Origin: Enterobacteria phage CUS-3 | Sequence record: FN394994.1 | Length of the DNA: 2,827 nucleotides | Direction: 5' to 3' (one strand) | Shown: piece after piece, positions 1 through 1,762 of the stretch | Position numbering within the stretch: position 1 is the stretch's first letter | Layout of the letters: every line of letters begins with the position of its first letter | Position numbers and translations under genes: made by a program | Notes under the pieces: model-generated | The model's database searches: none | What the model saw: only the letters and a program-made list of their open reading frames with translations | What the model was told of the DNA's origin: nothing

Positions 1-438
1 ATGGCGCGCCCAACAAAGTATCAAGAGGCGTATGCCGAACAGGCACGCAAACTGTGCTTGCTGGGCTACACCGATGCAGAGCTTGCTGATTTCTTCGAAG
101 TCAGTGAGTCAACTATTAACAAGTGGAAGCTTGATTATCCTGAGTTTTCGGAGTCCATAAAAAAGGGTAAGGCCGTCGCTGATGCAGAAGTTAGTGACCG
201 TCTTTATCAACGCGCTATGGGCTTCGTGGCTCCAGACATCGATATTCGTGTTATTGAAAACAGAATTGTCGAAACTCCGCTTGAGAAGTATTACCCGCCT
301 GATACAACTGCCGCCATCTTCTGGCTTAAGAACCGACAGAAGGATAAATGGCGCGACAAGGTTGATCACGAGCTAACAGGCAAAGACGGCGGCGCAATTC
401 AGATTGAAACATCACCGATGAGCACTCTGTTCGGAAAA
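1..438 (+). CDS. Phage terminase small subunit (DNA-packaging protein, Sf6 gp1-like), 3' end lost in N-run
   Basis: ATG at 1 opens a frame-1 ORF with no stops through 438 (146 resolved aa). The translation MARPTKYQEAYAEQARKLCLLGYTDAELADFFEVSESTINKWKLDYPEFSESIKKGKAVADAEVSDRLYQRAMGF... has the typical small-terminase N-terminal pattern: RPTKY, a helix-turn-helix (GYTDAELADFFEVSESTINKWK, nt ~61..129), then hPEF and RLYQRAMG. The C-terminal part (KDGGAIQIETSPMSTLFGK) resembles my recollection of Sf6-type small terminases. GC is ~50%. The ORF track extends it to a TGA at 541..543, but that stop lies beyond a 100-nt N-run, so the true 3' end is unknown. No RBS is visible because the window starts at the ATG. 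Confidence 0.7.
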
Positions 439-538
439 NNNNNNNNNNNNNNNNNNNNNNNNNNNNNNNNNNNNNNNNNNNNNNNNNNNNNNNNNNNNNN
501 NNNNNNNNNNNNNNNNNNNNNNNNNNNNNNNNNNNNNN
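439..538. other. Run of 100 N (masked sequence or conventional scaffold gap of unknown size)
   Basis: Directly seen. Exactly 100 N is the common placeholder for an unsized assembly gap, so the neighbourhood of the flanking sequences is uncertain. Confidence 1.
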
Positions 539-1762
539 TCTGAGCCATGTGTAAAATATTATGATGGCATTCTGTATCTGACGACCAGGGGGACATTAAG
601 TACTCAACCCGGTAGTTCATTGCACAGAAGCTCTGATTTAGGTACATCATGGAATTCTCTTCGCTTCCCAAATAATGTTCATCACTCAAACCTTCCTTTT
701 GCCAAAGTTGGCGATGAGCTGATTATTTTTGGCAGTGAGCGCGCATTTGGTGAGTGGGAAGGAGGAGAACCTGATAACCGTTATGCAGGAAACTATCCAA
801 GAACATTTATGACCAGAGTTAACGTCAATGAGTGGAGTCTGGATAATGTAGAGTGGGTTAATGTTACTGATCAGATTTATCAGGGCGGAATAGTTAACTC
901 TGCGGTTGGTGTTGGTTCAGTTTGTATCAAAGACAACTGGCTGTACTACATTTTCGGTGGGGAAGACTTTCTAAACCCATGGAGCATAGGGGATAACAAC
1001 AGAAAATATCCTTATGTTCACGATGGTCACNNNNNNNNNNNNNNNNNNNNNNNNNNNNNNNNNNNNNNNNNNNNNNNNNNNNNNNNNNNNNNNNNNNNNN
1101 NNNNNNNNNNNNNNNNNNNNNNNNNNNNNNNNNNNNNNNNNNNNNNNNNNNNNNNNNNNNNNNNNNNNNNNNNNNNNNNNNNNNNNNNNNNNNNNNNNNN
1201 NNNNNNNNNNNNNNNNNNNNNNNNNNNNNNNNNNNNNNNNNNNNNNNNNNNNNNNNNNNNNNNNNNNNNNNNNNNNNNNNNNNNNNNNNNNNNNNNNNNN
1301 NNNNNNNNNNNNNNNNNNNNNAGCGGCGGTGAAACAACGTCTTCAGCAGATGGTGCAATGATAACGTTGCATGGTTCCAGAAGCAGTACTCCACGTCGCG
1401 CGGTATATAACGCACTCGAACATCTTTTTGAGAACGGAGATGTTAAACCTTATCTTGATAATGTAAATGCTCTTGGTGGTCCGGGAAACAGGTTCTCGAC
1501 AGTTTATCTTGGCTCCAATCCTGTGGTTACCAGTGACGGAACATTAAAGACAGAGCCGGTCTCTCCTGACGAAGCATTGCTGGATGCCTGGGGTGACGTC
1601 AGGTATATCGCTTATAAATGGCTGAACGCTGTCGCTATAAAGGGGGAAGAAGGGGCGAGGATACATCATGGTGTAATCGCGCAGCAACTTCGTGATGTTC
1701 TTATTTCTCACGGACTCATGGAAGAAGAAAGCACAACATGCCGCTATGCCTTTCTTTGCTAT
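539..1762 (+). CDS. Endosialidase (endo-N-acetylneuraminidase) tailspike, partial: beta-propeller catalytic region, masked stretch, stalk end and start of C-terminal intramolecular chaperone domain
   Basis: Frame 2 is open from 539 to 1762 and stays in frame across the 291-nt N-run (97 codons). 539..1030 translates to SEPCVKYYDGILYLTTRGTLSTQPGSSLHRSSDLGTSWNSLRFPNNVHHSNLPFAKVGDELIIFGSERAFGEWEGGEPDNRYAGNYPRTFMTRVNVNEWSLDNVEWVNVTDQIYQGGIVNSAVGVGSVCIKDNWLYYIFGGEDFLNPWSIGDNNRKYPYVHDGH. It contains a canonical sialidase Asp-box (S-x-D-x-G-x-T/S-W) at 629..652. Glu (542..544), Arg (587..589) and Arg (740..742) are spaced 15 and 51 codons apart, matching my recollection of K1F endoNF active-site residues Glu581/Arg596/Arg647. 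1322..1762 translates to SGGETTSSADGAMITLHGSRSSTPRRAVYNALEHLFENGDVKPYLDNVNALGGPGNRFSTVYLGSNPVVTSDGTLKTEPVSPDEALLDAWGDVRYIAYKWLNAVAIKGEEGARIHHGVIAQQLRDVLISHGLMEEESTTCRYAFLCY, with Ser 1532..1534 exactly 330 codons after the Glu (endoNF Ser911 by the same numbering). Both ends are partial; the 5' side runs into the 439..538 N-run and the 3' side into the 1763..2179 N-run. Confidence 0.85.
629..652 (+). other. Asp-box (BNR) motif SSDLGTSW within the endosialidase beta-propeller
   Basis: Codons agc tct gat tta ggt aca tca tgg encode S-S-D-L-G-T-S-W, matching the sialidase Asp-box consensus S-x-D-x-G-x-T/S-W. Confidence 0.8.
1031..1321. other. Run of 291 N inside the endosialidase reading frame (length-preserving mask)
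   Basis: Directly seen. 291 nt is 97 codons, and the endosialidase frame and the recalled endoNF residue numbering are both preserved across it, so the Ns appear to replace real sequence one-for-one. Confidence 1.
1532..1762 (+). other. C-terminal intramolecular chaperone domain (peptidase S74-like autoprocessing domain) of the tailspike, N-terminal part; predicted autocleavage after Ser 1532..1534
   Basis: The S-D-G-T-L-K motif (1532..1549) places Ser and Lys five residues apart, the Ser-Lys dyad arrangement described for endosialidase chaperone domains (endoNF Ser911/Lys916 from memory). It is followed by the conserved-looking block GDVRYIAYKWLNAV...ARIHHGVIAQQLRDVL typical of these domains. 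The domain continues into the N-run at 1763. Confidence 0.75.

Follow-up and report, generated by a model that had tools for sequence, protein, structure and literature searches.

Apparent adjacency of small terminase and endosialidase genes in a phage CUS-3 sequence entry: almost certainly an artefact of a concatenated typing record

The sequence entry FN394994.1, filed under the name of Enterobacteria phage CUS-3, places a small terminase gene next to the middle of an endosialidase tailspike gene, with a run of 100 N between the two. This adjacency is almost certainly an artefact of a concatenated multilocus genotyping record for CUS-3, a P22-like prophage (Lederbergvirus) of E. coli K1. Four separately determined partial-gene sequences would have been pasted in genome order into one entry of 2827 nt, with runs of N between them; the pieces would be a small terminase gene, two parts of the endosialidase gene siaK1, and neuO minus its variable repeat. 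The original prediction, made from the sequence alone, offered three readings of the first gap: a placeholder joining pieces that are not adjacent, a real deletion, and a recombinant junction. In substance the placeholder reading stands, and the deletion and the recombinant junction do not, as we discuss below.

The window, by which we mean the whole stretch of 2827 nt that was analysed, is made up of four stretches of real sequence and three N runs, at 439-538 (100 N), 1031-1321 (291 N) and 1763-2179 (417 N). The first run is exactly 100 N, as originally described. All four fragments read on the plus strand of the window. Compared with the window, a sibling entry, FN394989.1, shows six base differences and identical N positions; the N runs thus came with the deposited records and are not a mask added afterwards. 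The idea of a mask laid over real sequence was rejected on these grounds, and the suggestion that a start codon and ribosome binding site be sought in an unmasked 439-538 falls away, as there is nothing beneath the N. The six differences from FN394989.1 lie at window positions 1500, 1574, 2184, 2206, 2216 and 2638.

The first fragment (1-438) is identified as a small terminase gene by the annotation of FN394989.1, by PHROG 309 and by sequence identities. It translates into 146 amino acids without a stop codon, of which residues 1-142 match PHROG 309 'terminase small subunit' (E = 2e-68); a search of the same protein against Pfam gave no family match. Its final 38 residues could be aligned with the C-terminus of Sf6 gp1 (PDB 3HEF/4DYC, chain residues 103-140 of 140), and because the alignment runs to the very end of Sf6 gp1, the fragment is the whole coding sequence minus its stop codon. 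The coding sequence in CUS-3 of E. coli RS218 (CP000711.1) is 22265..22705, and the fragment corresponds to 22268..22705. The claim that the small terminase is resolved to position 438 was thus correct, with only the stop missing. Alignment to the solved structure of Sf6 gp1 is limited to the last 38 residues, and the sequence suggests a mosaic protein, whose N-terminal DNA-recognition part would differ from that of Sf6 gp1. The fragment is 100% identical to six of the sibling entries, to prophage phiv205-1 (MN340231.1, 25813-26250) and to 30 complete E. coli chromosomes. RefSeq (PGAP) labels the gene 'hypothetical protein', as in the copy of E. coli PA45B (NZ_CP021288.1, 22136-22576), and MN340231.1 carries two wrong labels, 'HNH homing endonuclease' for the small terminase gene (25810-26250) and 'terminase small subunit' for the coat protein gene (19942-21195).

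The second fragment (539-1030) encodes 164 amino acids in frame, opening with SEPCVKYYDG, and comprises codons 487-650 of the 981-codon siaK1 gene of CUS-3. It matches PF12217 'catalytic beta propeller domain of bacteriophage endosialidase' at profile positions 192-355 of 367 (E = 1.6e-104), in agreement with the original view that the endosialidase frame is already inside its catalytic domain at 539. Over its 164 residues it aligns without gaps to endoNF (1V0E/3GVK), and phi92-type endosialidase structures also align. The Glu at 542-544 has Arg at +15 and +66, as in the endoNF alignment. We take E581, R596 and R647 of endoNF, which have the same spacing, to be the corresponding Glu/Arg/Arg of the catalytic domain, and the assignment of this Glu to about residue 581 in endoNF numbering is upheld; the residue numbers are reportedly those of Stummeyer and co-workers from 2005. 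The fragment is 100% identical to 3522-4013 of CP000711.1.

The third fragment (1322-1762) shares one reading frame with the second and covers the 3' part of siaK1, from the end of the stalk/tailspike domain to the start of the C-terminal intramolecular chaperone. It matches PF12219 (E = 3.7e-33) and PF13884 Peptidase_S74 'chaperone of endosialidase' (E = 8e-12), and is 100% identical to 3836-4276 of phiv205-1. Taken together, the two fragments carry the predicted features of a GH58 endosialidase tailspike: a beta-propeller with Glu/Arg/Arg, a stalk domain and a C-terminal chaperone domain. The siaK1 coding sequence of CUS-3 spans 2526..5471 in CP000711.1. Window base 539 corresponds to genome base 4013, which leaves 1,458 nt (486 codons) of upstream coding sequence, and not the approximately 1.7 kb that had been given as absent. 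The enzyme of phage K1F, the T7-like source of endoNF, has another type of N-terminal module for capsid attachment; CUS-3 and endoNF differ in upstream coding length because the N-terminal module of CUS-3 is of the shorter, P22 type. The CP000711.1 record cites PMID 16689790. Some complete E. coli genomes, such as NZ_CP025328.1 (ExPEC XM) and NZ_CP042246.1 (PU-1), have two to four separate matches to the 492 nt endosialidase fragment, which implies that a single chromosome can harbour several prophages, or remnants of them, with an endosialidase gene.

The endosialidase frame, which starts at 539, is one base off the terminase frame of 1-438. An open reading frame listed at 1-543, which crosses the 100 N run, was considered and rejected as an artefact: its TGA is made of out-of-frame endosialidase bases, and since the two frames differ by one base, it has no meaning. 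The other listed open reading frames that cross N spacers of the window are likewise all artefacts.

The real distances between the fragments were read from complete genomes. In CP000711.1, from BLAST coordinates and direct reading, the small terminase lies at 22268-22705, the first endosialidase piece at 3522-4013, the second at 2790-3230, and neuO downstream of its repeat at 1592-2236. CUS-3 of RS218 thus has all four fragments in colinear order on a single strand, with 98.6-100% identity to the window, the terminase fragment being 98.6% identical. In place of the 100 N, CP000711.1 has 18,254 nt between 22268 and 4013, holding 18 genes and the 5' part of the tailspike gene; among its contents are genes for the large terminase, portal, scaffold and coat, for head completion and injection, as well as mnt and ant, and siaK1 is represented there by its first 1,458 nt. 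Prophage phiv205-1 of APEC DE205B matches the window at 100% identity in all four fragments, with spacings of 20,753, 291 and 417 nt. The spacings in PA45B are 18,558, 291 and 417 nt, and terL, portal, coat and the rest are annotated between its terminase and endosialidase genes. At least 19 complete chromosomes are 100% identical to both of the first two fragments. The distance in these 19 is 18,100, 18,558 or 20,754 nt, always with both fragments on the same strand and the terminase upstream. The original prediction held that kilobases of sequence between 438 and 539 would make the adjacency an artefact of a gap, and 18-21 kb lie there in every complete genome examined.

The annotation tables of CP000711.1, MN340231.1 and PA45B agree on the gene order, which is terS-terL-portal-scaffold-coat-...-ant-tailspike-neuO-int on one strand, and all three contain the fragments of the window at 98.6-100% identity. 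The expectation that large terminase, portal and coat genes follow the small terminase in P22-like genomes is thus borne out. In phiv205-1, transposase genes at 6348-8283 (three open reading frames at 6348-8669) lie between a 216 nt 'bifunctional tail protein' open reading frame and the main tailspike open reading frame. The tailspike gene thus appears to be interrupted by an insertion sequence, which would separate its head-binding domain from the endosialidase body (MN340231.1, 6348-8967). The same extra ~2.2 kb (20,754 vs. 18,558 nt) is found in APEC IMT5155, DE17 and EC13 (NZ_CP005930.1, NZ_CP045206.1 and NZ_CM169488.1). A naturally 5'-truncated endosialidase gene may therefore exist, yet 20 kb from the terminase.

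The two other N runs behave differently from the first. In each of CUS-3 (3522 vs. 3230), phiv205-1 and PA45B, exactly 291 nt separate the second fragment from the third, and the spacer at 1031-1321 stands for 97 codons within siaK1. Similarly, CUS-3 (2790 vs. 2372), phiv205-1 and PA45B all have exactly 417 nt between the end of the third fragment and the ATG of neuO, and the spacer at 1763-2179 stands for the end of siaK1 and the siaK1-neuO intergenic region, up to the start codon of neuO. The 291 N and 417 N would then copy true distances of a reference genome. The 100 N would be the conventional placeholder for 'unknown length', hiding ~18-21 kb of ordinary late-operon genes. Only this first gap is of arbitrary length, since the true spacing is large and not the same in every strain; it replaces 18,100-20,754 nt of prophage, from the large terminase to the 5' part of the tailspike gene. 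The underlying prophage order would be terS, terL, portal, scaffold, coat, head completion, injection proteins, the immI region (mnt/arc/ant), tailspike, neuO and att/int.

The layout of the window is shared by a series of deposited entries. A megablast search of the phage collection returned 17 records of exactly 2827 nt (FN394218, FN394986-FN394993 and FN394995-FN395002), which align to the window at 1-438, 539-1030, 1322-1762 and 2180-2827 with 96.5-100% identity per fragment. Among the siblings listed, none is identical to the window over all four fragments, and the window has its own combination of alleles. FN394989.1 is entitled 'partial proviral terminase gene, siaK1 gene and neuO gene, genotype GT_5' (Enterobacteria phage CUS-3), and titles across the series name the same three partial genes and a 'genotype GT_x'. 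The entry has four CDS features with partial flags (> and <>) at the fragment ends: the terminase is flagged as 3'-partial, siaK1 as partial at both ends with its first piece 5'-partial, and the neuO CDS as 5'-complete. Shared boundaries and length in 17 records, partial-gene annotation in FN394989.1 and non-contiguity in complete genomes are together what marks a typing record. The host strain names of the siblings (IMT_, Delta-, A-) and their ENA FN accessions fit the Wuerzburg/Berlin K1 population study of Mordhorst et al. (2009), which PMC3046976 and PMC13001214 cite for the distribution of neuO and CUS-3. From the siblings we infer that the fragments are PCR amplicons of that typing study.

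The fourth fragment (2180-2827), identified as neuO (polysialic acid O-acetyltransferase) by the annotation of FN394989.1 and by PF00132, encodes a hexapeptide-repeat acyltransferase. According to PMC3046976, the phase-variable heptanucleotide repeat of neuO sits two nucleotides past the start codon, and the phase-variable repeat is also covered in PMC13001214. In the genomes, whose flanks are those of the window, neuO consists of ATG, two nucleotides, 18-20 copies of AAGACTC, and GTTTTCC. The number of copies is 18 in phiv205-1 (in frame), 19 in CUS-3 of RS218 (out of frame) and 20 in PA45B (out of frame). The 5' end of neuO in the window (2180-2190) reads ATG TC followed by G TTT TCC, without the repeat, and the genomes match the fragment from window base 2183 onward only. 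A check for a phase-variable contingency locus, that is (AAGACTC)n two nucleotides after the start codon, did not find one in the window. All siblings start alike, and the missing repeat would be an edit of the record and not a natural allele with zero repeats. For the two nucleotides after the ATG, CUS-3 of RS218 has TT, and the window, phiv205-1 and PA45B have TC; position 2184, which lies between the ATG and the repeat site, is C in the window and T in FN394989.1. In PA45B, neuO is annotated as a mere 336 nt 'acyltransferase' open reading frame (1149-1484). The short annotation is likely due to the 20 repeats, which put the full-length frame out of phase, and PA45B serves as an example of how phase-OFF alleles are shortened by automatic annotation.

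To look for a real junction, window positions 1-1030, which span the gap, were used as the query, and matching pieces were merged into one place if they were within ~1 kb of each other. A search of 5,426 complete E. coli genomes gave no place with the terminase and endosialidase fragments within ~1 kb, and a search of 50,697 phage records gave such places in the 17 sibling typing records only. The 'non-canonical adjacency' of the original prediction is therefore a property of no genome. Degraded prophages are generally common, and at face value the two genes are 100 positions apart in the window, as they might be if a degraded CUS-3 prophage had lost everything from terL through the N-terminus of the tailspike and retained a 5'-truncated endosialidase remnant. 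Such a deletion is nonetheless improbable in the extreme. Besides the empty count in E. coli, the fragments lie 18.1-20.8 kb apart in 19 of 19 genomes in which they can be paired; 17 independent strains would need the same deletion and the same 100 undefined bases; and the second fragment, which is flagged as 5'-partial in FN394989.1, starts on the first base of a codon and has no start codon. A recombinant junction, in which the catalytic module of the tailspike had moved beside the packaging genes, has an equally negligible probability. P22-like phages are mosaic and their tailspike modules are swapped between phages, and 'boundary sequences' of CUS-3 are annotated in CP000711.1. The known CUS-3 exchange boundary in that annotation, however, lies between the head-binding domain and the catalytic part of the tailspike gene, not at the terminase; the evidence against a deletion applies here equally, and the fragments are joined in no phage record besides the typing records.

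An automatic scaffold gap, in which contigs of a genome or prophage assembly are joined by paired reads and the genes lie near each other at an indefinite distance, would also leave 100 N, the usual placeholder length, between fragments whose order and orientation are those of the genome. We nevertheless consider it very unlikely. The description of the siblings gives three partial genes and a genotype number, and the 17 strains have identical boundaries and length, as from primer-defined amplicons and not from assemblies. The other two gaps are of exact length, and the neuO repeat appears to have been removed by hand. The pieces are indeed non-adjacent, as the scaffold reading had it, but they are joined by deliberate concatenation, as the description of FN394989.1 indicates, and not by an assembly scaffold. 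It is exceedingly unlikely that the CUS-3 prophage of the source strain is itself rearranged or partly deleted so that the genes are truly close, with the typing record concealing this.

Concatenation of typing loci, then, accounts for the window. Concatenated typing records that are held under phage names in sequence collections can pass for contiguous genome segments; the N runs in such records can be of exact or arbitrary length, and the genes in them have possibly been edited. The 5' end of neuO in the window, with its repeat removed, is likewise not natural sequence. The CUS-3 typing series should be flagged to avoid false calls of a 'novel junction'. The relevance of the finding is one of data hygiene only: there is nothing new here, and the genes of the underlying prophage follow the usual P22-like order.
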